From assembly GCA_964651805.1 (NCBI GenBank), contig CAZYXX010000002.1, positions 281,516-345,515 on the forward strand: a DNA stretch of 64,000 nucleotides, written 5' to 3'. Positions 32,454 to 48,237 of the stretch are shown here, in pieces. How positions within the stretch are numbered: the stretch's first letter is position 1; every line of letters begins with the position of its first letter. The DNA is from an uncultured Hyphomicrobium sp. GTDB lineage: Bacteria > Pseudomonadota > Alphaproteobacteria > Rhizobiales > Hyphomicrobiaceae. The notes beneath the pieces are model-generated. The model had not been told where the DNA came from and did no database searches. It saw only the letters and a list, made by a program, of their open reading frames with translations. The translations under genes were made by a program, and so were the position numbers.

Positions 32454-34337
32454 ATGCCACTTCGCGCTGTTTCGAAAGACTATCGCAAGCTCATCGCGGC
32501 CGCCGCGGGCGTCGGGTTTTTGTTCCTGACGGGTGCGGCGGCGATCCTAATGCTGCTGACCAGCCGAACAGCGAATAACTGGGTCGAGCACACTCAGAAC
32601 GTCATACTCGAAGCGACGCGTCTTGCGAGCCGCGTGGTCGACGCAGAATCATATCAGCGAAGCTATCTGATCACGGTCGATCCCACCTATCGGGAACTCT
32701 ACGTTCATTCACTCGGGGTTATCGAGTCGAAGTTCGAACTCCTGAAGGGGATGACGGTCGACAACGAGCGTCAGGTCGCAAAGCTTCAAGAGATTCGTAA
32801 AATACTCAAAAAACGGCTGGAGTTTCTGGCGCGGGGTGTTGCGCGCGCCGAGGAAGGAAAGAGGGACGAAGCGCTAAAGCTCGTCAAGGAAGGTGTCGGC
32901 AGGCAGCTTATGGCCGACCTCCGCAATCGTACCGAGGAATTCATATCAATCGAACGGGCGCTTCTTAAAGCGCGTCAGAACTATGCTGACCGTCTCGGCC
33001 AATGGCTGCTAGTTCTTATTGTCACGAGCCTCATTACAGCTGCGCTGACCTCGCTCTATTTGCTTCGCTCGATGCGCGGGTCACTTGACGATCTGTCGAA
33101 GCAAAAACAAAAACTCGAAGAGGAAATCGAGTTACGGCAACGGACCGAGGCGACGCTACGGCAGTCTCAAAAGATGGAGGCCGTCGGCCAGCTGACGGGC
33201 GGTATCGCGCACGACTTCAACAACCTTCTGACCGTCATTCTGGGAAATCTCGATACCCTCAGACGCCGCTTGGCCAAGTTGGACTTGCCTGACGCGGACA
33301 AACTGGTTCGGCCACTGGAAATGGCGCAGCATGCCGGTGGGAGTGCAGCGAAGTTGACACACCGGCTGCTCGCATTTTCCAGACAACAAGCGCTCGAACC
33401 CGTCGCAACAAACATCAATTCGCTCGTTGCGGGAATGTCGGATCTGCTACGCAGATCGGTCGGAGAGGAACACAAGATCGAGGTCGTGCTATCTGCCGGG
33501 CTGTGGACCGTGCACGTGGATCGCAACCAGCTTGAAAACGTCTTGCTCAATCTCGTCGTTAATTCTCGCGATGCCATGCCCGATGGCGGCAACATCACTA
33601 TAGAGACGGCGAACGCCTATCTCGATGAGGACTACGTTTCCAGATTCGGGGATATCGAAGCTGGACAATATGTGCTGTTGAGCGTCACGGATGCCGGCAT
33701 GGGTATCGCACCTGAACTCATCGATCGCATCTTTGAACCGTTTTTCACGACGAAAGGCGATGGGCGCGGTACGGGCCTGGGCCTCGCCATGGTCCACGGC
33801 TTCGTGAAGCAATCGGGCGGCCACGTGCGCGTGTACAGCGAAAACAATATCGGTGCGACGATCAAGATCTATCTGCCGCGCGTGCACGAGGAGGTGGTCG
33901 ACACAACCGGGCGATCCGCACGCTCGCACGAACGATCGATGCCTCGTGCGCTCGACGGAGAGACGATTCTCGTTGTTGAAGACAACGAAAGTGTGCGTGG
34001 ATTCGTGAGGGAAGCGCTGTCAGGGCTAGGTTACAAGGTCATCGAGGCGGAAAACGGTGACCACGCGCTCAAAATCATGGCGACAAGACCGCAGGTCGAT
34101 TTGGTCTTTACCGATGTGGTCATGCCTGGCGCAGTGAACGGGCGGAAGCTTGCCGATATGTTGAAAGTGGCTCATCCGAAACTCCCGGTTCTCTTCACCA
34201 CGGGTTTCACCCGAAATGCGATCGTTCACAACGGTCAGCTCGACCACGATGTTCAGCTGTTACACAAGCCATATGCGCAACATCAGCTCGCCTCTAAAGT
34301 TCGTTCCATGCTCGATCGTGCCAGGGCAAAGCCGTAG
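32454..34337 (+). CDS. CHASE3-sensor hybrid histidine kinase
   Basis: [10 protein letters not shown]...[10 protein letters not shown]; [10 protein letters not shown]; [11 protein letters not shown]; C-terminal receiver FTDVVMPG. Confidence 0.93.
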
Positions 34338-34481: not shown

Positions 34482-34506
34482 AACGCCGGTATCTAGCGGC
34501 GGTTCC
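34482..34506 (-). promoter_or_regulatory. EcfG (sigmaT/RpoE2) promoter
   Basis: Minus strand GGAAC-N16-CGTT. Confidence 0.7.
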
Positions 34507-34601
34507 TGTCTGCCGATCTGGCGGCGTTGCGAGTGCCAATCTAAAGAAACAGCTCTGGGGCCGCCGGAGCTGACTTCTGAACAAGCGTGGGCGCGAGATT
34601 T

Positions 34602-34736
34602 TCAGTTGTTCTGGTTTGCGTGAGAAACGTCGCTAGCACCGAGTTTCATCGGATAATCATTGTAGGCCGGCGTTTCTCGGCGGCAACCTGTGACAAAGAT
34701 TGCCGTGATAACGATCGCGATAGGAATAATCTTCAT
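34602..34736 (-). CDS. Small lipoprotein, 44 aa (not in ORF track)
   Basis: Hand translation MKIIPIAIVITAIFVTGCRRETPAYNDYPMKLGASDVSHANQNN; AAGGAG RBS; VTG-C lipobox. Confidence 0.75.
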   Translation of the reverse strand: MKIIPIAIVITAIFVTGCRRETPAYNDYPMKLGASDVSHANQNN

Positions 34737-35119
34737 GTTCCGCTCCTTTGTTGCCCCAGAATGGAACACAGATCGTGTCGTGTCTCGCGTGTTTGGCGTG
34801 TCTCGCCGTGTCCAGGACGCTTCACGAACTTTGATCGCGACGGCATGACGAGATCCGCCATACCAGTGAAATCAAATTCACGACGCCAAGTGCTGTCGCG
34901 CCATTTGCTGAAACGGAAATCGGACGCGAAGGTGCGATATTCGCTCAAGCGGCGCTGTTGCCGGTGTTCAAACGGCATGAGGTTGTGTCTCCCTTAGTGA
35001 AGCTCGAAAGGCCCAACGCGGCAGGCAGCTTCATGTTCCGTCTCTCTCATCGAGCTAAGGGACGGGCTGAACCCAATGTTCAGCCTGTCGAGAGGACGAG
35101 CTTTTGTTGTGCTCGGCAC

Positions 35120-35144
35120 GGAACCGTGACTGCACATGTGAGTT
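35120..35144 (+). promoter_or_regulatory. Near-consensus EcfG promoter
   Basis: GGAAC-N16-AGTT (one mismatch; GTT core retained). Confidence 0.5.
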
Positions 35145-35150
35145 CAATCG

Positions 35151-35294
35151 GAACAGCCCACGCGCTCAAGTTCGCGTGAGGCGTGATCGAGATGAGCTGA
35201 TCCATCCCCCTGGGGACCGGCTTATTTCGGATAAAACTGCCCGGACAACGCTCCCCTCCCCCTCCCGCACTGTTGTCCGGGCAGTTATTTTTTT
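35151..35294 (+). ncRNA. Candidate EcfG-dependent sRNA with C-rich loop
   Basis: Lies between an EcfG-like promoter and a 15-bp stem plus T7 terminator; loop contains TCCCCTCCCCCTCCC; no convincing plus-strand ORF; 5' end is estimated. Confidence 0.55.
35235..35294 (+). terminator. Intrinsic terminator (possibly bidirectional)
   Basis: AACTGCCCGGACAAC (35235-35249) / GTTGTCCGGGCAGTT (35272-35286) followed by ATTTTTTT. Confidence 0.85.
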
Positions 35295-35319
35295 GGACGT
35301 TAGGTGTGGTTTGGGAGCG

Positions 35320-36891
35320 TTAGGCAATGCGGGATTTGTCGATTCGGATTGAGGCCTTCAATCCGTCTTGTGCCCAGTCGTATTCAACATTGGAGCCGAG
35401 TTGGGCGGCACAAAGGGAGCCGATCAGTTTCGATCCGAAGCCCATGTTCTCGGGAGCAGCGGCTATTGCAGGACCGTTGCGCTCGTTCCACTCGAAAAGC
35501 ACTTCAGCTTCGGTCACGGTCAATCGCATATCAACGGAGCCGTCCGGCGTCGAAAGCGCGCCGTATTTTACGGCATTGGTAGCAAGTTCATGGACGGTAA
35601 GCGCTAGTGCAGTGCCCGCCAGTGAGCGGATCGTCAATTCGTCGCCACGGACTGTTATGCTGTTGTCACCGGTCAGCGATTTGTATGGCTCGACCAGAAC
35701 GCGCAACAGTTCCAGCATCGAAATGCGGTCGTCGCCCTGGTACATCAAATCGAATTGCCGGGCATCCACGAAGTCGTATACCCGCGACAGGGCCGTGAAT
35801 CGGCTGCGCAGCTCTTCGGCGTAATCCTTGATTTGCGAGGCCCGGCCGCGCGAACTCAATGAAATGAGGCTCGCGACCACCGCGAAGATATTCTTTATGC
35901 GGTGCTTGAGTTCCTTGGAGATGACATCACGCTGCTCTTCCGACACCTTGAGAGTATGAATATCCGTTGATGTTCCGAACCAGCGCTCGATTTCGCCATT
36001 TGCGCCACGAAGGGGTAATCCGCGCGCGAGCATCCATCTGAAGGAACCGGTGCGATCCTTGAGCCGATATTCTGTTTCGTAGCGTTCGCCGGTTTTCAAA
36101 GCCTTCGTCCAGGCGGCGGTCGTGTGCGCGATATCACTTGGGTGGAGAAGCTCAAGCCATTTGTCGTCCTTGCTTGAGGCCCAATCTGCTCCCGTGAATT
36201 CGTACCAGCGGTGATTGAAGAAGTCGGCCTCGCCGTCTGGAAGCGTGGACCAGACTTTCTGCGGGATCACGTTCAACACATCTCGCCAGCGCTTCTCCTT
36301 ACGCCGTGATTCGATCATAAAGTTCGCGACGGCGGCAAATTCCAGCAGTGTGCGTATGTCCGCATCCGTCCATTGCCGAGGAACCGCGTCGATGGCGCAT
36401 AAAGCGCCGAGCACATTTCCGTTTGATGAGGAGATTGGAACGCCTAGATAGGCGCGAACAGACAAGTCGCTTATTGCGAGATTGTTTGCCAGAAAATCAA
36501 TCTTCGTCGAATCGTTGACGATAAAGGGCTCGTTCGTGCCGACGACATACTGGCAAAATGAATGCGAGAGCGGTGTGCCTCGACTGGATGCCCAAGGCTC
36601 ATCTAGGCCGCAGGCGCTTTTGAAAAACTGCTTGTCCTCGGCCACAAGTGAAATCAGCGCGACGGGCGTCTTCAGGGTGCGGCAGACGAGCCGCGTTATG
36701 CTGTCGAACTCCGGCTCTGAGGGGGAGCCGAGTAGCTCGGTCGACGCAAGCGCGGCCAAACGCTCTGCATCCTGCAATTCACGCGTCGGATCCTGATGGA
36801 TCGAGTTCTCTTGTTGTTTCAGTTCAGGCCTCGCCCTGGAAGGTCCATCGCTCGTCGGCTCTCGCCCGGCAATTGAAACCATCCTCACCAC
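35320..36891 (-). CDS. GAF-PAS HWE-family histidine kinase
   Basis: GAF (RAYLGVPI..LGALCAID), PAS (FFNHRWYEFTG), ELKHRIKN, HELATNAVKYGAL, FEWNE. Confidence 0.93.
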   Translation of the reverse strand: MVRMVSIAGREPTSDGPSRARPELKQQENSIHQDPTRELQDAERLAALASTELLGSPSEPEFDSITRLVCRTLKTPVALISLVAEDKQFFKSACGLDEPWASSRGTPLSHSFCQYVVGTNEPFIVNDSTKIDFLANNLAISDLSVRAYLGVPISSSNGNVLGALCAIDAVPRQWTDADIRTLLEFAAVANFMIESRRKEKRWRDVLNVIPQKVWSTLPDGEADFFNHRWYEFTGADWASSKDDKWLELLHPSDIAHTTAAWTKALKTGERYETEYRLKDRTGSFRWMLARGLPLRGANGEIERWFGTSTDIHTLKVSEEQRDVISKELKHRIKNIFAVVASLISLSSRGRASQIKDYAEELRSRFTALSRVYDFVDARQFDLMYQGDDRISMLELLRVLVEPYKSLTGDNSITVRGDELTIRSLAGTALALTVHELATNAVKYGALSTPDGSVDMRLTVTEAEVLFEWNERNGPAIAAAPENMGFGSKLIGSLCAAQLGSNVEYDWAQDGLKASIRIDKSRIA

Positions 36892-37096
36892 CTAGCTCTC
36901 TTGTTTCCGTCCTAGCGGAAATTCGCTTTTGCCATCTAGGAGCTGTTTTTGGCTCCCGCAACCCAATTATTCTCACTAAGCGAGCTGAAAGAATTGAAGG
37001 AGTTGTGCGCTCAGGTATGTCAAAGTTGATAGACTGGAGATATTGTTCCGCGCCCTGCGTGTCGACCGATTTTCGGGTAACACTGCAGCAGGCCGT

Positions 37097-38920
37097 TTAT
37101 GCCGCAGCCGCGTCTGTGCCGGGTTTGGGCGTGGTGCTCGTGTCCGAGATGCGGGACGCGACCAGAGCGGCGCGTGCTTGAATGTCATCGAAGCGCGATG
37201 CGGTTGCGATCTGGCTTCGATCCTCAATGTCATTAGGGGCAATTCCTCGCTCTCCGAGCGTGCGTGTCATAATGGTTGCGGCCGGAAAGATGGCCTTAGC
37301 TCTGCGGCTCAGCAATGATGCTTGTTTCACGTCAAGGAGCCCGACATTGACGATGATGACCGTATCGGGTTCGGTGTTGCGCTGATCTGACTTGAAGGTC
37401 GAAAGCGCCGTTATTCCGCTCGTCGTTCCAGCGGCGACAGCCAGGCCAGGTCGTTCCCGGTTGATGCACATCGCGATGGCTTTGGCGGCGACAATGTCAA
37501 TCGGGCCGCGAGCCGGAACCACGAGGATAGGAGGTTCGGACTCGTGATCTTCCGCGCGCGTTTCCTGGACGTTGCCGTCGAGTAATTCGAGGACGTCGAG
37601 CAGGGTATCGTCCAGTGCTTCGAGCGTCGCTGCGTCAAGCCGGCCTAATTTGTGGTCGACCGCGGCCATTTTCAGCGCTGGCAACACGATCTCGTCGATG
37701 GCCACGTTGTTCGATTTGGTGTCTTCGATCGCTTCCAATTGGTTCAAGGCAGAGATCACGTCGTTCGAAAGCAGTCGATGGTAAAATTCTTGGGGCGGGG
37801 TCAATGCCTGCTCGTCGCTAAGCAGAACGGTAAGGAAATTTAAGCTCGGAACGTAACGGCCGGCGACGCTGAATATCATCGTGATCGGGGCCGAAAGCAG
37901 AAGACCGAGCGGCCCCCAGACCAGCGTCCAGAAGCTGGCTGATAGGATCATTGCGAATGGCGACAGGCCGACGCGCTTGCCAAGTAACAGCGGCTCGATC
38001 ACGTGACCCATCATTGGCTCACCCAACAAGAAGAGTGCAACGGTCGCTATTGTCATGCTCCAACCGGGATCGACGGCGAGCGACAGCAGCACGGGTGGAA
38101 TTGCCGCGAGGAACGATCCGATAAACGGGATAAATCGCATTAGAAACGCGAACGCGCCCCAGAGCGCGGGATTGGGAATGCCTATCAGCCAGAGAGCGAT
38201 CGCCACAAACGTGCCGAAGCCGGCGTTGAGGAGAACGAGTGCGGTAAACAGGTTCGACAGCCGGCTGCCGGCGTCGGACATGGCTGATGTCGACGCACTT
38301 ATGTTGTCGGTTCCCGCGACGCGCACGATCCGGTCACGGATATCGCGATACTGGAAAAGCAGGAATAGCGTGAAAAGAAACGTCAGGCCGATCTGAGCGA
38401 CGGACGCTACCGCATGCTCCAGGATAGTGAAGGGTGATGCGCTGGTGTTGTTCGAGATGACAATCTTGCTGTCGGCGTTGTCATTTTGGCCAGAACTCTC
38501 GGCTGGGCGGCTAGACTTCAACTCTTGCTCGACAAGCCTTTGATAGCTTTCGATTGCGTCGATGGCGCGCTGCAGCGCGCCGCCGGACACGACTTGGCTC
38601 GACACGTCTTTCAGCTTGGTGGCGACGTTCGACTGGTATTGCGGGAGGCTTGCCGTAAGGCCGAGAAGCTGTGTGCTCATGGCGTAGGACGCCACGCCGA
38701 CCAAGCCGGTTGTCGTGCCGAGGACCAGCAGTATCGCGACGGTCTGTGGAATGCGGCGGCGCATCAGTGCGTCGACGACCGGCGACAGGATGAAGCAGAG
38801 AATGGCCGCAAGTGTGAGCGGGATAAGTATATCCTGGCCGAACACGAGCGCGGCTACCACGATCGCCGCAGTTATCAGCGACGACGTCAGGCTTCCAAGC
38901 GAAGCCGCGAACAGGGGCAT
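37097..38920 (-). CDS. AI-2E (PerM/UPF0118) family transporter with C-terminal cytoplasmic extension
   Basis: GQDILIPLTLA, GIPNPALWG..RFIPFIG, IEPLLLGKRVGLSP; GGAAGGAG RBS before ATG 38920. Confidence 0.9.
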   Translation of the reverse strand: MPLFAASLGSLTSSLITAAIVVAALVFGQDILIPLTLAAILCFILSPVVDALMRRRIPQTVAILLVLGTTTGLVGVASYAMSTQLLGLTASLPQYQSNVATKLKDVSSQVVSGGALQRAIDAIESYQRLVEQELKSSRPAESSGQNDNADSKIVISNNTSASPFTILEHAVASVAQIGLTFLFTLFLLFQYRDIRDRIVRVAGTDNISASTSAMSDAGSRLSNLFTALVLLNAGFGTFVAIALWLIGIPNPALWGAFAFLMRFIPFIGSFLAAIPPVLLSLAVDPGWSMTIATVALFLLGEPMMGHVIEPLLLGKRVGLSPFAMILSASFWTLVWGPLGLLLSAPITMIFSVAGRYVPSLNFLTVLLSDEQALTPPQEFYHRLLSNDVISALNQLEAIEDTKSNNVAIDEIVLPALKMAAVDHKLGRLDAATLEALDDTLLDVLELLDGNVQETRAEDHESEPPILVVPARGPIDIVAAKAIAMCINRERPGLAVAAGTTSGITALSTFKSDQRNTEPDTVIIVNVGLLDVKQASLLSRRAKAIFPAATIMTRTLGERGIAPNDIEDRSQIATASRFDDIQARAALVASRISDTSTTPKPGTDAAAA

Positions 38921-38957
38921 GCCGGCTGACTCCTTCCCACACTCCAGCGAATGAGCA

Positions 38958-38982
38958 AACGGTTGTCGGCGTGACTTGTTCC
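38958..38982 (-). promoter_or_regulatory. EcfG promoter for the AI-2E transporter
   Basis: Minus strand GGAAC-N16-CGTT. Confidence 0.75.
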
Positions 38983-39025
38983 TCGGCCGCATAAATTCGA
39001 TTGAACGATTTCGTAGTGCGAAACG

Positions 39026-39051
39026 GGAACCGGAGTGTTTTCGGGGTCGTT
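39026..39051 (+). promoter_or_regulatory. EcfG promoter for ORF 39067
   Basis: GGAAC-N17-CGTT. Confidence 0.78.
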
Positions 39052-39066
39052 GCGGGATGAGGTGCG

Positions 39067-39432
39067 ATGAGCCTGCGCATTCAATGCTTTGGCGCGTTGG
39101 GAGCGCGTGGGCGTCAAAACGAGGATGTCGTGAACAAGAAGCTTCCGTCGCGCTCGGACTCCTGCCAAAGCGCCCGTGCTTTGCTGGCAGCGCGAGATGA
39201 AATCAGGAAACTCAAGACCAAGGTGCGCCGAAGTGTCAGCGAGCGCGGTGCGCGCGGAAAGTCCGCTATAGGGCAATCGATCGAGGCGCGAGAGATTCAG
39301 CAGAAAATCGCACGTCTGGAAGCAAAGCTCTCTCGCGTTGAAATGATGGAAGCCGGCGCGAAGAAGAGTAATCGCTGGCGTCGGCTGAGGCATGAATTCG
39401 AGGCGGTCCGCAGAGCGGTCGATGCCAAGTGA
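39067..39432 (+). CDS. Hypothetical basic coiled-coil protein
   Basis: GAGGT RBS and an EcfG promoter 15 nt upstream; K/R-rich helical composition. Confidence 0.6.
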   Translation: MSLRIQCFGALGARGRQNEDVVNKKLPSRSDSCQSARALLAARDEIRKLKTKVRRSVSERGARGKSAIGQSIEAREIQQKIARLEAKLSRVEMMEAGAKKSNRWRRLRHEFEAVRRAVDAK

Positions 39433-39475
39433 TGATCCGCCTCCCGTTGAAATCCTGCCCGTTCGAACAAGAGGT

Positions 39476-40222
39476 TTAAATGAGCGGACGGAGTACGGGA
39501 CCTACGCCTTCATAGCCGGATATCTGTGCCAGTTTGGCCTCGTCGATAATTTCAAGCGTCGAGCTTTGCCATTTCACAAGGCGTTGCGATACGAGCTTAT
39601 TGAGCGTCTTGTTCGTGTGCACGAGAGACAGGCCGAGTGCATCGGCCAAGTGCTGCTGCGTAATGGGCAGCTTGAGTTTTGCGCCAGTGACGAGGCCTAC
39701 ATGCCGGGCTCGAGTGAAAATGTCGAGCAAAACGCAGCCCATTTTTTCGATCGCCGTTCGTCGTCCGATTGTCAGGAGTTGTTCGTCCAGTAGCCGTTCA
39801 CTGCGTGATGCGAGCCAAGTCAAATCATAAGCCAGTGCCGGATGCTTCGCGTACAAATCCCATAGTTTGTCGCGTGGGAACACGCAAAGGACCATCTGCG
39901 AAAGAGCTTCTACCGAATGTTGCATTTCATTGAAGGTGGAATTCTGAAGGCCGAGAAAATCGCCCGGAAATACGAAGTTCAGGATCTGCCGGCGGCCGTC
40001 CTCCAGTGTCTTATAGCGAAACGCCCAGCCCGACAGGACGGTGAAGAGATGAGGGTTTGATGTTCCTTCCATCAGGATCGTTGCGCCCGGGTCCGTCACA
40101 AATTCTCCGGACTTGAACTCCTCAACAAAGCTCAATTCACCGGGTGAGATGGCACGGAAGATCTCGAGCGCCTTAAGAGGACATTTGCGGCAGGGTGTTT
40201 GACGCGGCACGGCGGCGGGCAT
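39476..40222 (-). CDS. Crp/Fnr family transcriptional regulator
   Basis: PCRKCPL N-terminus; cNMP barrel DGRRQILNFVFPGDFLG; HTH QQHLADALGLSLVHTNKTL. Confidence 0.92.
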   Translation of the reverse strand: MPAAVPRQTPCRKCPLKALEIFRAISPGELSFVEEFKSGEFVTDPGATILMEGTSNPHLFTVLSGWAFRYKTLEDGRRQILNFVFPGDFLGLQNSTFNEMQHSVEALSQMVLCVFPRDKLWDLYAKHPALAYDLTWLASRSERLLDEQLLTIGRRTAIEKMGCVLLDIFTRARHVGLVTGAKLKLPITQQHLADALGLSLVHTNKTLNKLVSQRLVKWQSSTLEIIDEAKLAQISGYEGVGPVLRPLI

Positions 40223-40315
40223 GGCAGTCCTTCAGCAATTTCTGGCGTCTAATGCGCTCAGGTAAATTTGGTTCGGTCGTTCGCCGCGGGAGGGCGTCAA
40301 AACACCGATATCCTG

Positions 40316-40341
40316 GGAACCGATGGGTGAAAAGCGGCGTT
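40316..40341 (+). promoter_or_regulatory. EcfG promoter for the DUF1328 gene
   Basis: GGAAC-N17-CGTT. Confidence 0.8.
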
Positions 40342-40381
40342 GTGAAAGTTACAGGAGCTGCATAGGTATTCGGAGATCGAA

Positions 40382-40555
40382 ATGGGCAATCTGCTTCACT
40401 ATGCGATCGTCTTCTTGGTTGTGGCGCTCGTTGCTGCGTTTCTCGGATTTGGCAGCGTGGCGGGAACTGCGATGGAAGGTGCGCGCATTCTGTTCTGGGT
40501 CGCGATCGTTCTGTTTGTCGTATCGCTGATTGCTGGGCTTTTTCGAAGAGCGTAG
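40382..40555 (+). CDS. DUF1328/UPF0391 small membrane protein, 57 aa (not in ORF track)
   Basis: Hand translation [57 protein letters not shown]; GGAG RBS. Confidence 0.9.
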
Positions 40556-40664
40556 CCTTATCAAGGGGCAGAGGCGCGCGATCGCGTCGTTATGAATCGG
40601 CCGGGGCCTCGCGCACCGGCCGGTTTGTCGTTGCGAACGGTATCTTGCTAGAGGACCTGAGCCG

Positions 40665-42065
40665 ATGAAAAGGCGAACGCGGGCAAAGTCAGCGGCAAGG
40701 CTTCTCATGATCCTTGCGGCCTTGCTGGTGCCAACGCTGTCGCTGTTGCCGCTCGGCGGCCTGTACCTCTACGAAAATGGCTACCTTCTCATCTGGGCGG
40801 GTCTCGCGCTCGTTGTGATCATCATCGTGTATGCGTTCGAGCGGTGGATTTTTGTGTCGACTGCGGTCGTGCCCGAGGTCGAGCCAGATTCCAACACGGC
40901 TCAGTCGCGCAGCTACAATGCGCTTGAGGAAAAAGCTTGGACGGACGTTCGGTTGCTGGCACGGTCGACCGACATCGAAAAGCTTGGCGATATACAGTCC
41001 GTGCTCGACCTTGGCCAGAAGACGGTCGAGACCGTTGCCCGGCGGCTTCATCCCGCTTCTTCTGACGCAGTCTGGCGCTTCACGCTACCTGAAGCCCTTA
41101 CTATCACGTCGCGTGTCAGCGCGGAGCTGTCTGAATTCGTCAACCAAAACCTACCCTTTGGTGATCGGCTGACGGTTTCGCAATTCCTGCAGGTCTACAG
41201 GTGGCGTTATCTCGCCGACGTCGCGGAGCGCGCATACGACATCTGGCGCGTTCTGCGTTTGGTCAATCCTGCAACCGCCGTAACGAACGAGGCGCGGGAG
41301 CGGCTGTCGCGTGCGCTGCTGTCGTGGAGCCGCGAGAAGATTACAAGACGTCTTGTCGAGGAGTACGTCGAACGCGTCGGCGAGGCCGCGATCGACCTCT
41401 ATGGCGGGCGATTGCGGGTTTCGGATGAAATATCGACGGCATCTGCCGCACCCCCGATTGGTAGCGACGCGGTAGGTCAGGCGTATCACCTCAGGGTGCT
41501 GCTCGTCAGCCGCGACGATAGACTGCGTTCGTCCGTTCGCGCGTTGCTTCGCGTCGGTCTCGGCAGAGCTATCGAGGGTGGTAGCAACTATCTCTTCGAG
41601 CTGGAGGAAGCCGCAACCTTGGCTCCGGTCCGGGTGAGAGAATACGACATGCTCGTTTTCTTGACGCCGGCGGATGAGACGGGTTTGGCGGAAGCGACGC
41701 TTGGAGACGATGTTCTCAAGCTGCTGGAAGCGGACGACGAAGCCACGCTACCTCCCGTCGCGATCGTCGCGATTTATGCCTTTCCTGATACTGTGCGTTA
41801 CGCTGAGAGTGTTGGACGCGATACGGGCTCTGCCAGCGTGCCGGCATCGGTCGTCGACTTGTCGATTGGGACAGAGCTGGACATGGCGGCCATCATACCG
41901 CTGCTTGCGCGCATGCGGCAGCTTGCGCCGAGTGCGGCGCGTGTTCACGCCGTCAGAACAAGGGCCGCGATGCGGGGGCGGCCGTGGACCCACTCTATCG
42001 TCCAGGCCGGTCGCGCCGCCGGCTCGCTCATCGGTAAGGTTGGCCGCAGCATCATCACGAGGTGA
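40665..42065 (+). CDS. Two-TM hypothetical protein, resembles membrane-anchored GTPase family but with degenerate P-loop
   Basis: N-terminal TMs; helical domain AYDIWRVLRLVNP...VGEAAIDLYGGRL; then LRVLLVSRDDRLRSS where a Walker A would be expected. Confidence 0.55.
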   Translation: MKRRTRAKSAARLLMILAALLVPTLSLLPLGGLYLYENGYLLIWAGLALVVIIIVYAFERWIFVSTAVVPEVEPDSNTAQSRSYNALEEKAWTDVRLLARSTDIEKLGDIQSVLDLGQKTVETVARRLHPASSDAVWRFTLPEALTITSRVSAELSEFVNQNLPFGDRLTVSQFLQVYRWRYLADVAERAYDIWRVLRLVNPATAVTNEARERLSRALLSWSREKITRRLVEEYVERVGEAAIDLYGGRLRVSDEISTASAAPPIGSDAVGQAYHLRVLLVSRDDRLRSSVRALLRVGLGRAIEGGSNYLFELEEAATLAPVRVREYDMLVFLTPADETGLAEATLGDDVLKLLEADDEATLPPVAIVAIYAFPDTVRYAESVGRDTGSASVPASVVDLSIGTELDMAAIIPLLARMRQLAPSAARVHAVRTRAAMRGRPWTHSIVQAGRAAGSLIGKVGRSIITR

Positions 42066-42086
42066 CTCAGCTCAAGCGGAGCGGGC

Positions 42087-42112
42087 GGAACAAACGCGAG
42101 CGGTTCTGCGTT
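42087..42112 (+). promoter_or_regulatory. EcfG promoter for the 42160-43001 gene pair
   Basis: GGAAC-N17-CGTT. Confidence 0.8.
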
Positions 42113-42159
42113 TCCGCGGCGAAGGCAGAAAATTCGCGTCATTTTAAGGAGAGCAGGCC

Positions 42160-42444
42160 ATGAATCGTTCCGCCTCGTATCAAAAGGACATCGAAACGAA
42201 GGTCGTCAGGGGTGCGGAAGAGGCGCTGAGTACCGCTGGGCACTACGCGGAAAAAGCGATCGACGCGGCTCAGAGCACGGCGAAGTCGGTTGCAGATCAG
42301 GGCCGCGATGTGGGTGAGCGCGTCAACGAGGTCGCAGGAAACTTCAAGACCGCATTGGACAAGTCCGTCACGACCCAACCGTTGACTACGCTCGTCACTG
42401 CGGCCGCCGTTGGCTTCGTACTCGGTGCGTTGTGGAAGTCGTGA
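42160..42444 (+). CDS. ElaB/YqjD (DUF883)-like tail-anchored stress protein
   Basis: Helical body ending QPLTTLVTAAAVGFVLGALWK; AGGAG RBS. Confidence 0.8.
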   Translation: MNRSASYQKDIETKVVRGAEEALSTAGHYAEKAIDAAQSTAKSVADQGRDVGERVNEVAGNFKTALDKSVTTQPLTTLVTAAAVGFVLGALWKS

Positions 42445-42488
42445 CGCTCCACGATTCGCACTAGGCATTTTCAACGCCCGAGGGAGAG

Positions 42489-43001
42489 ATGGCGATGTTC
42501 GGCGCACTCGTGCGGCGCGCGCAGCACACAATCGACAATGCGATTGAAAACGCGGTTACCCGCGCGCTCGTCGCCATACCGTTCCTCGTTGCAGTAGGTT
42601 TTCTTACCGTCGCGGCCAGTATTCGATTGACCGCAATGTATGGAGCGGAGACAGCGTACCTCATCCTCGCGGGCGTCTACGCATTCCTCGGACTTTTTGG
42701 ACTTGCGATTACGAACGCACGGTCGGTGAACCCGAGCGAGCCACCGGCAGCTGAAGCTGTTGAAACCGAGTCGGAGGAGGCCGCAAGCGAGGAAGCTACG
42801 GCAGACAGTTTCTCAAGCGCGGATCGGGAACTTCTTGTCGCGGCACTTACCTCGGCAGCACCCATCGCGTTGCCGTCCGTGCTTCGCGTCCTATATCGCA
42901 ACCTGCCAGTCGTGCTGGCTTTGTTAGCAACCGCACTCTTGTATTTGGGTGGCGAAGACGCTGAGGGCAGTGGCGAAAGCGCGCCGGTTCCGGCTGAATA
43001 G
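42489..43001 (+). CDS. Membrane protein, YqjE/phage-holin-3_6-like
   Basis: Two TM helices, acidic linker, third hydrophobic segment; follows the DUF883-like gene as in yqjDE-type pairs. Confidence 0.55.
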   Translation: MAMFGALVRRAQHTIDNAIENAVTRALVAIPFLVAVGFLTVAASIRLTAMYGAETAYLILAGVYAFLGLFGLAITNARSVNPSEPPAAEAVETESEEAASEEATADSFSSADRELLVAALTSAAPIALPSVLRVLYRNLPVVLALLATALLYLGGEDAEGSGESAPVPAE

Positions 43002-43005
43002 CCCA

Positions 43006-43030
43006 GGAACCATAGCGGTGGCGGCACGTT
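43006..43030 (+). promoter_or_regulatory. EcfG promoter for nepR-ecfG
   Basis: GGAAC-N16-CGTT. Confidence 0.85.
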
Positions 43031-43120
43031 GGACAGTCGCTATTTCCGAGCTAGGTTGTTTCGATTTTGCGGCCGGGGAGAGCTCAAGGAATGGCTGACA
43101 GAGAAACCAAGAAACCGGAA

Positions 43121-43291
43121 ATGACCGACACAACGACTACGGGTTCGGAGGAACAGATTAGCCTTCCAGAGGAAGTCCAATCGAGGTTGGGCAAGGAGTT
43201 GCGCAACGTCTACGGCAAACTTCTCGCTGAACCTCTGCCCGATCGCTTTTCCGAGCTTCTGAAGAAGCTCGCGACCGACGAAAGCAAGTGA
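43121..43291 (+). CDS. nepR: Anti-sigma factor NepR (alternative start 43091)
   Basis: RLGKELRNVYGKLLAEPLPDRFSELLKKL; overlaps the start of ecfG. Confidence 0.9.
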   Translation: MTDTTTTGSEEQISLPEEVQSRLGKELRNVYGKLLAEPLPDRFSELLKKLATDESK

Positions 43292-43842
43292 TGGACGATC
43301 AGGCGAGTCAACAGTTTCAGGAAGATCTGGCGTCGTTCGTGCCGAACTTGCGCGCCTTCGGTCGCTCGCTTTGCGGCAACGCCGACCACGCCGACGACCT
43401 CGTGCAAGAGACTCTCGTCAAGGCATGGAAGAACCGCGACAGTTTTGCGCAGGGATCGAACCTGAAGGCGTGGCTGTTCACAATCCTGCGCAACTCGTTT
43501 CTTTCGGAGCGTAGGAAGCTGAAGAATGAGGTACGCGATCTCGATGGCGAGTACGCGGCGCGTTCAGCGGTCAGTCCAGCACAATCGGGCCACATGGACC
43601 TCATCGATTTCGAGAAGGCTCTTTCCGAGCTGCCCTCCGACCAGAAGGAGGCGCTGCTCCTAGTTGGCGCAGAAGGGTTTTCATACGAGGACGCGGCGCT
43701 CATGTGTGGTTGTGCGGTTGGAACGATCAAAAGCCGCGTTAACCGCGCGCGCAGCAAGCTTGCCGAGCGCCTCGGTATTGAGGGGGCAAGCGATTACGGA
43801 AACGATGCGCAAGCGCATTGGGCTCGTTCAGCCGTAAAGTAA
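43288..43842 (+). CDS. ecfG: ECF sigma factor EcfG (ECF15)
   Basis: NLRAFGRSLCGNADHADDLVQETLVKAW; NLKAWLFTILRN; CAVGTIKSRVNRAR. Confidence 0.93.
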   Translation: MMDDQASQQFQEDLASFVPNLRAFGRSLCGNADHADDLVQETLVKAWKNRDSFAQGSNLKAWLFTILRNSFLSERRKLKNEVRDLDGEYAARSAVSPAQSGHMDLIDFEKALSELPSDQKEALLLVGAEGFSYEDAALMCGCAVGTIKSRVNRARSKLAERLGIEGASDYGNDAQAHWARSAVK

Positions 43843-43881
43843 CTGTCTGTTCCTAAATAATAAATTTTTATGCTCTCGGAC

Positions 43882-43907
43882 GGAACCAGCGCGCCTTCAG
43901 CAGCGTT
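43882..43907 (+). promoter_or_regulatory. EcfG promoter for phyR
   Basis: GGAAC-N17-CGTT. Confidence 0.85.
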
Positions 43908-43946
43908 GTACAGAGGTTTCGCATGACCACGCACAGGGGATCTTGC

Positions 43947-44756
43947 ATGTCGCTTGCTGACTTGATCGGCCCAGAATTGCCGTTCCTGCGCCGCTTCGCC
44001 CGAGCCTTGGGTGGCTCTCAGGAACGCGGCGACGCTTACGTCGTTGCCACTCTAGAGACGCTCGTTGCGGATCCGAGAAGTTTCCGGAGCGATCTCAAGC
44101 CGCGTGTCGCGCTCTACAAATGCTTCCTTAGCATCTGGAACGCCATGCCGATCAACGCAGAAGTCGAGCCGGCCGGATCGGATATCATTTCGGCGGCCGA
44201 TCGGCGGATCGAATCGATCACGCCTTTGCCGCGCCAGGCGTTCCTGTTGGCGGCGGTGGAGGAGTTCTCACCCGCTGATATCGCCGTGCTGCTCGATCGC
44301 AGCGAGGATGAGGTTGCGGCGCTTATCGATGAAGCAGCGGCTGAAATCGCCGATCAGATCTCGGCTCGCGTGCTCATCATTGAGGATGAACCGCTGATCG
44401 CGCTCGATATCGAGAATATCGTTCGGGAGATTGGCCATGACGTGGTTGCGATCGCCGCTACACACAAAGAAGCGACCGCCGAGGCGGCGCGCACCAAACC
44501 CAATATCGTCCTTGCCGACATTCAGCTGGCCGACGGCAGCTCAGGCATCGATGCGGTCAACGAAATACTCCTGAATTTGAACGTGCCGGTTGTCTTCATC
44601 ACGGCCTATCCGGAGCGGTTGCTGACGGGCGAGAGACCGGAGCCCGCATTCCTAATGACCAAGCCGTTCCGTGCCGAAATGGTGAAGGCAGTTGTAAGCC
44701 AAGCTCTTTTCTTCGACGTAAAGGCGGGACCGGCGCGAACCGGGGCGGCGGCGTAA
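43947..44756 (+). CDS. phyR: Anti-anti-sigma response regulator PhyR
   Basis: Sigma-like domain LPFLRRFARALGGSQERGDAYV plus C-terminal receiver ADIQLADGSSG...FITAYPERLLTG. Confidence 0.95.
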   Translation: MSLADLIGPELPFLRRFARALGGSQERGDAYVVATLETLVADPRSFRSDLKPRVALYKCFLSIWNAMPINAEVEPAGSDIISAADRRIESITPLPRQAFLLAAVEEFSPADIAVLLDRSEDEVAALIDEAAAEIADQISARVLIIEDEPLIALDIENIVREIGHDVVAIAATHKEATAEAARTKPNIVLADIQLADGSSGIDAVNEILLNLNVPVVFITAYPERLLTGERPEPAFLMTKPFRAEMVKAVVSQALFFDVKAGPARTGAAA

Positions 44757-44761
44757 GCGTT
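44736..44761 (+). promoter_or_regulatory. Near-consensus EcfG promoter for the HWE kinase
   Basis: CGAAC-N17-CGTT (one mismatch). Confidence 0.5.
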
Positions 44762-44839
44762 ACCAAATTTGCCAACGTCGCCGGCAAAGAGCGACCAACG
44801 AAGATTGTCAGATGATCTAGCAGTGTCGAGAACAGGCCT

Positions 44840-46621
44840 ATGAGAGGCGCAAGCCCGTTTCTCGATTCCCCGGACGGAATGCTTTCACGGATGGCAGAGC
44901 AGCTGCTGACGGTCAGCGGCGACTGCGTGAAAGTCATTTCAGCAGATGGCCGCGTTCTTCACATCAATGAGGCGGGCCGGCGATTGCTCGAGGTCGAGAA
45001 CGGCGAGAGCGTCGTTGGTCAGGACTGGATCAGCACATGGCCCGAAAACGCCCAGCCCGATGTCAGGAAAGCGTTTGACGCGGCACTATCGGGTTTAGTT
45101 CACCGCTTCTCTGCTGCATGTCCGACGGCATCAGGGACGCTCAAATACTGGGATGTCGTCGCCAGCCCGTTGACGCGGGCCGATGGATGCATCGATGGAG
45201 CGCTCGTTGTCTCGCGTGACAACACGGCTTCTATTCTGCTTCAAAAGGTCTTGCTTGAGAGCGAGCAGCGTTTCCGTGCGCTCGCCGACAACATGGCCCA
45301 GCTTGCCTGGATTACCGACGGGGACGGCTGGGTCTACTGGTACAATCAACGCTGGTACGATTATACGGGGACGGCGCTGGACGAGATGAAGGGCTGGGGC
45401 TGGCAGAAGGTCCTTCACCCGGATTTCGTTGAGCGCGTATCTGTTAAGATCAAGGCGTGCTTTGCGAGCGGTGAACCCTGGGAAGATACGTTTCCACTGC
45501 GCGACAAGGATGGTCGTTACCGGTGGTTCCTGTCGCGCGCAAACCCTGTGCGGGATGGTGCGGGCAAGATCGTTCTTTGGTGCGGAACCAATACCGATAT
45601 TACGGAGCAGAGGGAGCTGAGCTTGCGCCTTCGGCAGCTGGCGCGGCTCGTGGAGCTTTCTCACGAAGCGATCATGGTTTCAGATACCAGTGGCGACGTG
45701 GTGTTGTGGAACAAGGGATGCGAAGACGTCTACGGGTACACACGCGCTGAAGCCATCGGCAAACGCCCGGATGAGCTTCTTCACACGCGCTATCCCGTGG
45801 ACCGGCAGCGCTTCCTGCAGGAAATTCTGGAAAGCCGGAGCTGGCGCGGCGAGATTGAGCAGGTCTCAAAATCAGGAACGGTATTGTGGATCGAGACCCG
45901 GCTTGAGGTGCTCGAGTTCGACGGGGCGACGTTCGTTCTGGAAACGAACCGCGATGCGACCGAACGGAAAGCGGCGGAGCGGTCGCAATCGATCCTCATC
46001 GGGGAGCTCAATCACCGGGTCAAAAACACGTTGGCGATCGTTCAATCGATCGTCACGCTAATGGCGAAGCGCACCACGGATGTCGGGCGTTTCGTTGCGG
46101 ATTTCCGGCGGCGCCTTCAGTCTCTGGCGTTTGCGCACGATCTGTTGACCGAAGCGCAGTGGAAAGGTGCCGAGCTGTCGGAGCTGGTCAAATTTGAAGC
46201 GGAGGCCAGGATCCTGGAGGCAGGCCGCTTTCGCGTACGCGGGGACCCTGTGTTCCTGCCGCCGCAGCTTGCGATCCACTTTGCGCTTATTGTTCATGAG
46301 CTAACGAATAATGCCGTCGAGCATGGTGCGCTTAGCGGAGGCTTGGGCGTCGTGAATGTGACCTGGGCGATCACTGGAAAGGACGAACTGACCGTCGAAT
46401 GGCGCGAGACAGGCGGCCCAAGGCCGGCTGGCGGTAGGCCGAGTGGATATGGAACGACGCTGATCGACCGCCTGGGCAGCCTGCCGCATTTGCGCACGCA
46501 GCTTTCGTTCAACGACGATGGCTTTGCCTGCATTATGAAAATCAGACTGCCAGCGGAGCAGAGCAGTAATCCCAGCGACTATTTCGATGTTACCAGCGGG
46601 CGCCGCGCGCGTCCGCTCTGA
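44840..46621 (+). CDS. Triple-PAS HWE-family histidine kinase
   Basis: Three PAS repeats; ELNHRVKN, HELTNNAVEHGAL, VEWRETGGP. Confidence 0.93.
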   Translation: MRGASPFLDSPDGMLSRMAEQLLTVSGDCVKVISADGRVLHINEAGRRLLEVENGESVVGQDWISTWPENAQPDVRKAFDAALSGLVHRFSAACPTASGTLKYWDVVASPLTRADGCIDGALVVSRDNTASILLQKVLLESEQRFRALADNMAQLAWITDGDGWVYWYNQRWYDYTGTALDEMKGWGWQKVLHPDFVERVSVKIKACFASGEPWEDTFPLRDKDGRYRWFLSRANPVRDGAGKIVLWCGTNTDITEQRELSLRLRQLARLVELSHEAIMVSDTSGDVVLWNKGCEDVYGYTRAEAIGKRPDELLHTRYPVDRQRFLQEILESRSWRGEIEQVSKSGTVLWIETRLEVLEFDGATFVLETNRDATERKAAERSQSILIGELNHRVKNTLAIVQSIVTLMAKRTTDVGRFVADFRRRLQSLAFAHDLLTEAQWKGAELSELVKFEAEARILEAGRFRVRGDPVFLPPQLAIHFALIVHELTNNAVEHGALSGGLGVVNVTWAITGKDELTVEWRETGGPRPAGGRPSGYGTTLIDRLGSLPHLRTQLSFNDDGFACIMKIRLPAEQSSNPSDYFDVTSGRRARPL

Positions 46622-46710
46622 GGCCGTAATCGACGGACCATGAAAATGCGCGGCGCCATCGTCCTCTGGGCCGCGCACACTAGTTTGTTGAAACGCGCGT
46701 TGTACCGTTT

Positions 46711-47205
46711 TTAAGCGCTCTTGGTGATCGTTTCTTTGGCGCGATTGAAGCCGTCGACGAGCTGCTGGACGATAGGCCCCACGGCCCGCTTAATTTCCGT
46801 ATCAGGAAGCGCCTTCGCGAGTGCGGAGAAGCGATCGTCGATGTTCATGCGGCGCAATTCAGATCGCACCGTGTCGCTGATGTCGTCGCTCACGCGAGAC
46901 AGTTCTCTTCGCCATTTGCGATCCGGCGTCCGGTTGCCGGTTCTTCGGTTGCTCAGCACTATAGCAACGAGCGCCGCGGAAGCGGCAATGCCGATCGCAA
47001 CGGGAATGGGGTTCGCTTTGATATACTTTTCGGCCGTAGCGTAAAGATCCTGCGCGCTGTCAGCGACAGCTTCCGCTTTCTCCGACGCTTTGTCTTTGAC
47101 GTTTGCAACGTCCTTCTTCAGCTTGTCGAACAAAGCTTCGAGCGACGCGAGGCGTTCATCGGACGTTGTCGATACTCCAAAGTCCTGAGATTTAATCGGT
47201 TGCAT
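46711..47205 (-). CDS. Hypothetical DUF883-like protein with central TM
   Basis: YIKANPIPVAIGIAASAALVAIVL; has its own EcfG promoter. Confidence 0.7.
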   Translation of the reverse strand: MQPIKSQDFGVSTTSDERLASLEALFDKLKKDVANVKDKASEKAEAVADSAQDLYATAEKYIKANPIPVAIGIAASAALVAIVLSNRRTGNRTPDRKWRRELSRVSDDISDTVRSELRRMNIDDRFSALAKALPDTEIKRAVGPIVQQLVDGFNRAKETITKSA

Positions 47206-47244
47206 AATCGTCCCTAGGTTGGTCTGGATAGAAAGCTAAGTTGC

Positions 47245-47270
47245 AACGCGCGACCGAGCACACGAGTTCC
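47245..47270 (-). promoter_or_regulatory. EcfG promoter for ORF 46711-47205
   Basis: Minus strand GGAAC-N17-CGTT. Confidence 0.8.
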
Positions 47271-47274
47271 GCGC

Positions 47275-47493
47275 CTATTCTTGCCTTTCGCGCAGATGCA
47301 ACGCGTGGGAATGGATGTCGGGATCTACGACCTCGATCACCTCTTGATCCTTCCCGTCGTCGTCCTGAAGGTTTTTGTCGACTTCGCGCAGTTTCTCGTG
47401 AGCGTCGATGATTTGCCATGGCAACGGCTTGATGAGCGCGCAGTCGAACAAGTGCCCGAGCTTTAAGCCGATCCGTTCCATCAAACGGTTCAT
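47275..47493 (-). CDS. Second, stand-alone NepR-like anti-sigma protein
   Basis: RIGLKLGHLFDCALIKPLPWQIIDAHEKL fits the NepR pattern IGxxLxx[YF]DxxxxxPxPxxxxxLLxxL; GGAGAG RBS; acidic tail. Confidence 0.65.
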   Translation of the reverse strand: MNRLMERIGLKLGHLFDCALIKPLPWQIIDAHEKLREVDKNLQDDDGKDQEVIEVVDPDIHSHALHLRERQE

Positions 47494-47531
47494 CGTGGCT
47501 CTCCGTAGTTTCGGAGCAAACTTTGCTTGTT

Positions 47532-47557
47532 AACGTGGCCGACGACCCCATTGTTCC
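47532..47557 (-). promoter_or_regulatory. EcfG promoter for the NepR-like gene
   Basis: Minus strand GGAAC-N17-CGTT. Confidence 0.8.
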
Positions 47558-47584
47558 GTAGTGCGCAACGACGCTCTGCGATGC

Positions 47585-47613
47585 AAAAAAGCCCGAAGCA
47601 TCGCTTCGGGCTT
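47585..47613 (-). terminator. Intrinsic terminator after csbD
   Basis: AAGCCCGAAGC-ATC-GCTTCGGGCTT with an A6 run on plus (U-tract on minus). Confidence 0.85.
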
Positions 47614-47646
47614 CACTAAAAATGCGATCGCGAGAACGTGGATTGG

Positions 47647-47844
47647 TTACATCGCATCCGTCCATCGATCGATTTCGGCCTTCGCCTTGTCCTTTGCGTA
47701 GCCGTAACGCTCCTGAAGAATACCTTCGAGCTGTTCGCGGCTACCGTTGACGCGGGCAATATCGTCGTCAGTCAGGTTGCCCCAGTTCTCTTTGACCTTG
47801 CCGGCGAACTGCTTCCAATTCCCTTCGATGCGATCCCAATTCAT
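47647..47844 (-). CDS. csbD: CsbD family stress protein
   Basis: MNWDRIEGNWKQFAGKVKENWGNLTDDD...LEGILQERYG. Confidence 0.95.
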   Translation of the reverse strand: MNWDRIEGNWKQFAGKVKENWGNLTDDDIARVNGSREQLEGILQERYGYAKDKAKAEIDRWTDAM

Positions 47845-47945
47845 CTTGAACCCTTTCTCTTCAATTTACCGGCGAGATGGCGCACGAGATGTGCGAAAGC
47901 GATACCGGTGAGCGTGATGCGTCCGTGGCGCCGCATGCCTAATAA

Positions 47946-47970
47946 AACGCGCGCGTAGAGTGGGGGTTCC
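47946..47970 (-). promoter_or_regulatory. EcfG promoter for csbD
   Basis: Minus strand GGAAC-N16-CGTT. Confidence 0.8.

Positions 47971-48160: not shown

Positions 48161-48237
<77 letters not shown>

Follow-up and report, generated by a model that had tools for sequence, protein, structure and literature searches.

Introduction

What would a second, stand-alone NepR-like gene be doing at a general stress response (GSR) locus that already has a nepR? The question is raised by a 64,000-nucleotide stretch of DNA from an uncultured Hyphomicrobium sp. (assembly GCA_964651805.1, contig CAZYXX010000002.1, positions 281,516 to 345,515), here called the window, in which an open reading frame (ORF) of 72 codons, ORF72, is located close to nepR, ecfG and phyR. 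A reading made from the letters of the window alone, hereafter the sequence-only reading, had taken ORF72 for an additional NepR-like feedback element, either an anti-sigma factor insensitive to PhyR or a decoy that titrates PhyR. To our knowledge, the NepR-like feedback proteins studied so far number only two, each noticed by eye in a single species, and it is by analogy that we infer the binding partner of ORF72 and the sign of its effect. We favour the view, at a probability of roughly one half, that ORF72 is an EcfG-induced, NepR-like regulator that acts on the GSR by negative feedback.

Results

ORF72 and its syntenic homologues

A database search returned two close homologues of ORF72 (56-61% identity), both of which share the gene order csbD-orf72-orf164-HWE kinase-phyR-ecfG-nepR (loci L001-L006); one of the two syntenic contigs belongs to an uncultured Hyphomicrobium metagenome-assembled genome (MAG). 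Residues 1-38 are near-invariant among the three proteins and the tail is not. Over codons 2-38 the ratio of non-synonymous to synonymous substitution (dN/dS) is 0.10-0.12 for ORF72 against each syntenic homologue and 0.03 for one homologue against the other, and the differences fall 6/2/14 at codon positions 1/2/3. By these comparisons codons 2-38 are under purifying selection, and ORF72 is a real and conserved protein-coding gene. An alignment of the intergenic DNA with that of L001 and L006 shows conservation of a terminator hairpin, of the Shine-Dalgarno sequence and of both promoter elements (-35 and -10), with divergence of the sequence between them, the promoter spacer included. The hairpin of L001 and L006 lies in the same place as the csbD terminator of the window and has a different sequence, and GGGGAGGG occupies the ribosome-binding position of ORF72 in both homologues.

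The signals around the gene are in every respect those that the sequence-only reading had described. The 72-codon ORF with its GGAGAG ribosome-binding site is present, and the translation quoted for it matches. The promoter, GGAACAATGGGGTCGTCGGCCACGTT, is an exact EcfG-type sequence 38 nucleotides upstream of the ATG, a claim that gains weight from the EcfG-type promoters found upstream of non-syntenic homologues (below). The terminator said to insulate ORF72 from csbD was missed by a simple pattern scan and revealed by folding (free energy -38 kcal/mol, z = -6.3 against shuffles). The reported lack of an N-terminal extension is borne out by an upstream in-frame TAA that overlaps the -10 element and by the absence of any ATG, GTG or TTG from this TAA to the start codon, so a longer N-terminus is impossible. 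An overlapping ORF of 157 codons (47192-47665, minus strand), which traverses the csbD terminator, was rejected, as were the antisense ORFs at this position; the codon-position bias suits the ORF72 frame alone.

ORF72 and the downstream gene for a 164-amino-acid protein are not separated by a terminator, which makes it likely that transcription from the ORF72 promoter reads through, and the downstream gene can, on the evidence of its sequence, be transcribed from two stacked EcfG promoters. This arrangement, in which the second promoter comes directly after ORF72, would also suit an untranslated region with a fortuitous ORF, which would serve either as a small RNA dependent on EcfG or simply as 5' leader to the 164-amino-acid gene, and EcfG-dependent small RNAs occur in other Alphaproteobacteria (PMC5869019). 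That explanation is very improbable in view of the dN/dS values of 0.03-0.12 and the third-position bias, the conservation of the Shine-Dalgarno sequence and start codon, and a protein-level family that covers lineages whose DNA cannot be aligned.

A family of small unnamed proteins

About 25 small proteins of other lineages share the N-terminal 38 residues of ORF72. An exhaustive search of 1.8 billion representatives with a profile hidden Markov model (HMM) gave three further small proteins (P0007, P0008 and P0011), a second search with an enlarged alignment gave 14 additional members, and a metagenome scan gave nine more loci. As called, the members are 53-113 amino acids long, and none of them bears a name or a Pfam domain. 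The core consensus of the family HMM is MnetLkrlGleLrrvfagelrrPLnWrmIDaletLrEae, and the core pattern can be written M-N-E-T-L-K-x-[IL]-G-x-x-L-[RK]-x-x-[FY]-x-x-x-[LV]-x-[RK]-P-[LM]-[NP]-W-x-[IM]-I-D-A-x-E-x-L-x-E. The tails are charged and unalignable, with a net charge of -8 to +1 across members. The acidic C-terminal tail noticed by the sequence-only reading is thus true of this copy, which has 11 D/E and 4 K/R in residues 38-72, and does not hold as a trait of the family.

The species range of the family is poorly defined, because a profile scan of contigs with a narrow alignment (A1) returned only the known Hyphomicrobium MAG and one 14-residue match (L008) that was judged to be due to chance. 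Neither ORF72 nor P0015 proved to have a relative among plasmids by tblastn; the sole match, in Tistrella (E = 4), was also judged to be chance. Three long repetitive proteins from the representative search (P0006, P0009 and P0010) were set aside as low-complexity false positives. The called genes of distant members often reach spuriously through the promoter at the N-terminal end, as in P0017 and P0019, and the called start of P0011 (L024 799-1583; MPHGEGRN...) may be too far upstream.

EcfG-type promoters in the window and across the family

The window contains 12 copies of the motif GGAAC-N15-18-CGTT where 2.6 would be expected, and none of 100 shuffles reached 12. The matches cluster at 34-48 kb (34482-47970) around the nepR-ecfG-phyR-kinase locus, and three of them follow one another on the minus strand, each ahead of one gene (csbD, ORF72 and the 164-amino-acid gene). 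The match at 44021-44045 falls within phyR and may be there by chance.

Outside the syntenic group, promoters of this kind recur ahead of family members; the EcfG motif known from work on Sphingomonas melonis is GGAAC-N17-20-GTT (PMC6599016). The non-syntenic homologue L009 has GGAAC-N16-CGTT 57 nucleotides ahead of its ATG. In the L011/L014-L019 group, in L022 and in L028 the sequence GGAAC-N17-GTT is followed by exactly 8 nucleotides and then the ATG, and L013 has GGAAC-N18-GTT-N8-ATG. Single mismatches are seen in L026 (GCAAC-N16-CGTT-N8-ATG) and in L020/L021 (GGAGC-N16-CGTT). No EcfG-type promoter was found in the upstream regions of L029 and L024; in L024 the gene (for P0011) begins 29 nucleotides after a PRC-barrel gene, with which it is probably co-transcribed. 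We estimate the chance expectation of GGAAC-N16-18-GTT at about 0.003 per 100-nucleotide upstream region. Set against this figure, recurrence of the promoter in at least six lineages makes a strong comparative case for placing the family in the EcfG regulon. Most members carry an EcfG-type promoter, often at the spacing of a leaderless mRNA: in the N8-ATG members the start codon coincides with the expected EcfG transcription start, and in many lineages the fixed spacing implies that the mRNA is leaderless. This geometry therefore excludes an N-terminal extension in five other lineages too.

Relationship of the family to NepR

The ORF72 family probably shares ancestry with NepR, as judged by sequence comparisons of high sensitivity. 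With hhalign, the alignment of 14 family members matched an alignment of five diverse NepR cores at a probability of 84.7% (P = 6.7e-6), with ORF72 residues 5-37 placed on NepR residues 30-62. The probability grew with the diversity of the family alignment, from 18% with three sequences to 80.5% with six and 84.7% with 14, and the register stayed constant. The score was 31.4, against 8.4 +/- 1.8 (maximum 16.3) in 300 shuffles of the NepR columns, which are a lenient control for amphipathic helical peptides, and 13.2 with the reversed alignment. An HMM of 11 distant members, built without any sequence of the window group, was run on 1282 six-frame segments of the window: it ranked ORF72 first (2e-15) and the canonical NepR second (E = 0.0018), with the next segment at 0.26. 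Finally, the member from L022, whose place in the family is unambiguous (64 bits against the family HMM), matched the Pfam NepR model PF18557 with E = 0.0033 and 17.5 bits (cut-off 25.7), its residues 7-38 lying on model positions 3-34 in the same register. The three comparisons agree with each other on this one register, which is also the one drawn by the sequence-only reading; the canonical NepR of the window itself exceeds the Pfam cut-off with 39.8 bits (E = 3.5e-10). Pairwise BLASTP of ORF72 with NepR gave E = 0.001 as a single comparison, over helix 1 only, and a search of PDB sequences with a three-sequence profile gave chance-level matches to unrelated proteins (E >= 0.09).

The residues kept in helix 1 are among those that matter in NepR. 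Among the 14 aligned family members L12 never varies and position 16 is always F or Y, in agreement with a helix-1 motif L-R-x-x-[YF] whose Leu and Tyr/Phe are required for the activity of S. melonis NepR and NepR2 (PMC6599016). The Arg position of this motif is Gly in ORF72 and Arg or Lys in most family members; an R-to-A change there was without effect in S. melonis (PMC6599016).

Gene order offers hints, at the level of sequence, that the family arose from a copy of nepR at a DUF883-type locus. The L011-L019 homologue comes after a yqjD-like DUF883 gene and a small membrane ORF (L019 4916-5748; L011 7543-8288), and the DUF883 gene of the L019 lineage (L019 4916-5224) is 43% identical to that at 42160-42444 in the window. 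There the pair 42160-42444 and 42489-43001 precedes the canonical nepR, and the L011-L019 homologue thus occupies the nepR slot.

Predicted structure and departures from NepR

In the AlphaFold2 model of ORF72, made with the 14-sequence alignment, a helix at residues 2-21 is followed by a break at K22-P-L-P25, a helix at 26-47 and a disordered tail; the predicted local distance difference test score (pLDDT) is about 80 in the core and below 50 from residue 49. The Caulobacter NepR has alpha1 at 33-47, a linker at 48-51 and alpha2 at 52-61 (PMC4551977), and the model thus predicts for ORF72 the NepR layout of two helices joined by a four-residue linker. Foldseek compared the model with the PDB and gave one meaningless match (E = 4.5), a two-helix peptide being too small for a fold search.

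Several results weigh against identifying ORF72 with NepR or assigning it a NepR-like role. The check that the sequence-only reading had proposed, a search with the NepR-family HMMs, was negative: Pfam NepR (PF18557) and NCBIfam NF051865 gave no match to ORF72 at E <= 10, and 13 of 14 family members had no Pfam NepR match. A small NepR HMM placed ORF72 second of the 1282 window segments with an E-value of only 3.3, and an HMM of the PDB NepR fragments alone left it outside the top 8 in the window. NepR has a disordered N-terminal flanking region, FR1, which is reported to be present in every case and to be needed for binding to phosphorylated PhyR (PhyR~P) and for activity in vivo (PMC4551977); ORF72 is without FR1, its predicted helix beginning at residue 2. 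The linker has changed as well: E47 and P50 are invariant in the five-sequence NepR alignment (P50 in the numbering of the window NepR), and in the ORF72 family the Glu position is K/R, or A/S in two members, while the P50 equivalent is Asn in most members and Pro only in the ORF72-like members and L022. Replacement of the linker by poly-Ala abolishes all NepR interactions (PMC4551977). Helix 2 of the family is longer than that of NepR, from which its W-x-[IM]-I-D-A motif is absent; in the family W26, I29 and D30 are invariant and A31 is nearly so. In position, too, ORF72 differs from nepR, which lies immediately upstream of ecfG and is co-transcribed with it: ORF72 has csbD and a DUF883-like gene as its neighbours and is on the strand opposite to ecfG, some 3.4 kb away, and distant family members sit away from phyR-ecfG loci. 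The NepR-like identity claimed by the sequence-only reading therefore stands in the sensitive tests and in its register, and must be qualified by the change of several NepR-defining residues. Because ORF72 has no FR1, a charge-reversed linker and a helix 2 motif of its own, and is not beside ecfG, it counts as NepR-like but belongs to a distinct family, and should not be filed as a member of the NepR family.

The general stress response island

By its sequence the segment 34482-47970 of the window is a GSR island, whose features are collected in Table 1. Most of its EcfG-type motifs precede small stress-type genes, namely those for a DUF1328 protein (40382-40555) and a DUF883 protein (42160-42444), nepR, phyR, the 164-amino-acid gene, ORF72 and csbD. 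The matches of the 164-amino-acid protein to domain models are weak only (NCBIfam ElaB E = 0.009, DUF883_C E = 0.1, and also weakly YtxH-like). Two more kinases are encoded within a few kb of the phyR locus: a second HWE-type kinase (GAF-PAS-HWE_HK; 35320-36891, minus strand) and a CHASE3 hybrid histidine kinase (32454-34337, plus strand); it is possible that both are extra inputs to PhyR. An ORF of 466 codons between the DUF1328 and DUF883 genes (40665-42065, plus strand) has no Pfam match and is conserved in place in the Hyphomicrobium MAG (L001, 465 amino acids). A tRNA-Met gene (CAT) at 48161-48237 on the minus strand, just upstream of the csbD promoter, was identified with ARAGORN (Rfam 61 bits).

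Table 1. Features of ORF72 and of the surrounding island. Positions are those of the window, except in the last five rows, where they are those of the locus named.
Feature	Position	Strand	Remarks
ORF72 coding sequence	47275..47493	-	ATG start, 72 amino acids and stop
ORF72 conserved core, residues 1-38	47380..47493	-	helix 1 (2-21), linker KPLP (22-25), start of helix 2 (26-47), as predicted; NepR-like part
ORF72 variable charged tail, residues 39-72	47278..47379	-	predicted disordered; net charge -7; unconserved in homologues
Ribosome-binding site GGAGAG	47499..47504	-	5 nucleotides ahead of the ORF72 ATG
ORF72 EcfG-type promoter	47532..47557	-	exact GGAAC-N17-CGTT
csbD intrinsic terminator	47583..47614 (approx.)	-	upstream of the ORF72 promoter; 12-pair GC-rich stem and U-run
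EcfG-type promoter of the 164-amino-acid gene	47245..47270	-	4 nucleotides past the ORF72 stop; conserved in L001 and L006
Gene for 164-amino-acid protein, downstream neighbour	46711..47205	-	weakly ElaB/DUF883-like; one predicted membrane segment; syntenic in L001 and L006
csbD, upstream neighbour	47647..47844	-	Pfam CsbD E = 1.5e-21
csbD EcfG-type promoter	47946..47970	-	GGAAC-N16-CGTT, exact to GGAAC-N15-18-CGTT
Canonical nepR, 66 amino acids	43091..43291	+	first of the nepR-ecfG pair; EcfG-type promoter 43006-43030
ecfG, extracytoplasmic function sigma factor	43288..43842	+	Pfam Sigma70_r2, Sigma70_r4_2, PhyR_sigma2; candidate partner of ORF72
phyR, sigma-like and receiver domains	43923..44756	+	Pfam PhyR_sigma2 E = 7e-24, PhyR_sigma-like, Response_reg; candidate partner of ORF72
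PAS-PAS-PAS HWE histidine kinase of the stress locus	44840..46621	+	Pfam PAS domains and HWE_HK
Promoter-to-ATG segment, L011	8030-8075		N8-ATG member
Promoter-to-ATG segment, L022	5960-6003		N8-ATG member
Promoter-to-ATG segment, L028	2990-3033		N8-ATG member
Promoter-to-ATG segment, L013	2015-2056		N8-ATG member
Promoter-to-ATG segment, L026	445-483		N8-ATG member

Discussion

In the feedback reading that we favour, EcfG-bound RNA polymerase would transcribe ORF72 from its own GGAAC-N17-CGTT promoter and, since transcription would depend on EcfG, the product would accumulate only once PhyR~P has released EcfG from NepR. By analogy with the NepR2 and META2p0735 proteins of other Alphaproteobacteria, the ORF72 module would then dock on a surface of the sigma2/sigma4 type, that of PhyR in the first place and that of EcfG as the alternative. 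Docking would return the canonical NepR to EcfG, and the GSR would be damped or ended, a delayed negative feedback.

The nearest parallel is NepR2 of S. melonis Fr1 (#1448; PMC6599016), which like ORF72 is small and NepR-like, stands alone, belongs to the EcfG regulon and has its gene at the GSR locus. It is opaque to BLAST and co-immunoprecipitates with PhyR, and its knockout raises and its overexpression lowers GSR activity (PMC6599016). In both proteins the likeness to NepR consists of a few conserved residues and predicted helices; NepR2 needs its helix-1 Leu and Phe, and ORF72 keeps L12 and F16. The spacing from Leu to Met is 15 in NepR2, 16 in NepR and 16 in ORF72 (L12 to I28), NepR2 being compared by its description only. 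The two differ in layout: in NepR2 the NepR-like residues are C-terminal (L31, F35, M46) and the N-terminal region is NepR-like, whereas ORF72 begins with the core at residue 1 and has its extension at the C-terminus. In Methylobacterium extorquens AM1 (PMC4814048) the NepR paralogues MexAM1_META2p0735, META1p1275 and META1p2700 are also stand-alone, and two of the three have EcfG-type promoters. META2p0735 is stress-induced via PhyR and EcfG, binds PhyR and no EcfG, and lowers GSR and stress resistance when overexpressed; its authors called it an 'anti-anti-anti-sigma' factor (PMC4814048). These paralogues were found from NepR by BLAST/PSI-BLAST, unlike ORF72, which is invisible to the Pfam NepR HMM; no tblastn relative of ORF72 or P0015 was found in a plasmid collection that includes the AM1 megaplasmid (NC_012811), and at the BLAST level ORF72 and the M. 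extorquens paralogues therefore appear to be different sequence families.

With canonical NepR (PF18557; PDB 3T0Y, 2LFW, 5UXX, 4QIC) ORF72 shares the succession of alpha1, four-residue linker and alpha2 (in ORF72 as predicted), the pattern G-x-x-L-(R)-x-x-[FY] ... P-L-P ... L, an EcfG promoter and the locus. It differs in having no FR1, in standing outside the ecfG operon and in scoring below the Pfam cut-off, and its family has [KR]-P-[LM]-[NP] where canonical NepR has E-x-x-P as linker, and a longer helix 2 with W-x-[IM]-I-D-A-x-E-x-L-x-E. On the evidence of its sequence ORF72 thus resembles the EcfG-induced feedback regulators in having its own EcfG-type promoter and a NepR-like core that is seen only by sensitive comparison.

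The same homology and the same promoter would serve equally well if ORF72 bound EcfG through its NepR-like core and, lacking FR1, could not be removed by PhyR~P, which would make it a PhyR-insensitive anti-sigma factor and a hard, self-limiting shut-off. The behaviour of Caulobacter NepR without FR1, which binds sigmaT and the isolated sigma-like domain of PhyR and not full-length PhyR~P (PMC4551977), speaks for such a role, and FR1 is impossible both in ORF72, by the stop codon at -10, and in the leaderless lineages. Yet in vivo the core-only Caulobacter protein left sigmaT uninhibited (PMC4551977), no EcfG was bound by the M. extorquens paralogues in two-hybrid assays (PMC4814048), and the authors of the S. 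melonis study suggested that a complex of NepR2 and EcfG does not form (PMC6599016); moreover, the charge of the linker Glu is reversed in a linker that is essential for all NepR interactions. We regard such an anti-sigma role as unlikely, and rank it below the explanation that dispenses with NepR altogether. There, ORF72 would be an ordinary effector or accessory protein of the GSR whose partner is unrelated to sigma factors, perhaps the ribosome, a kinase or the neighbouring membrane proteins of ElaB/DUF883 type, and its likeness to NepR would be a convergence of short amphipathic helix-Pro-helix peptides. No curated NepR model reaches its threshold, the most conserved residues of the family (P23, W26, I29, D30, A31) are not NepR residues, DUF883-like neighbours recur (window 46711-47205; L019 4916-5224), Foldseek and the PDB sequence search returned nothing, and column shuffling is lenient for helical peptides. 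Convergence would leave it to coincidence that three independent tests arrive at NepR in one register, that helix 1 retains the Leu and Phe/Tyr whose function has been tested and that the L-R of NepR is restored in distant members. We therefore consider this explanation doubtful, while according it a real share of the probability.

Because the linker is charge-reversed, helix 2 has an invariant Trp-x-x-Ile-Asp-Ala and FR1 is missing, the family may also be a separate, stress-induced branch that split from NepR and acquired a new specificity, and so does not simply copy NepR2; we advance this idea with low confidence. If it is true, one version is a core-only anti-sigma factor that PhyR~P cannot displace, an irreversible off-switch. 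In another version, the protein would inhibit a different sigma-like surface, for example an EcfG paralogue, the extension resembling NepR that some EcfG proteins have, or one of the kinases or phosphotransferases in the PhyR relay. The absence of FR1 is what keeps the PhyR-insensitive variant alive, and the changed linker and helix 2 do the same for a different partner.

The feedback concept is already known from NepR2 and META2p0735, and in this respect ORF72 is less new than the sequence-only reading implied. What is new, as far as sequence comparison can tell, is a definable and unannotated family that the curated models miss, with an architecture in which the core comes first, a W-x-x-I-D-A motif and frequent leaderless expression from EcfG promoters. 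Current domain libraries miss the family and annotations leave it mostly unnamed; its EcfG-type promoter is found across lineages. Having no disordered N-terminus, the family is a natural experiment on the function of that region in NepR. If its members bind PhyR or EcfG, they would reveal what the partner-switch interface can do without, and would provide a handle for annotating feedback elements in the genomes of Hyphomicrobiales; if they bind neither, the family would represent a new conserved protein of the GSR with a function still to be found.

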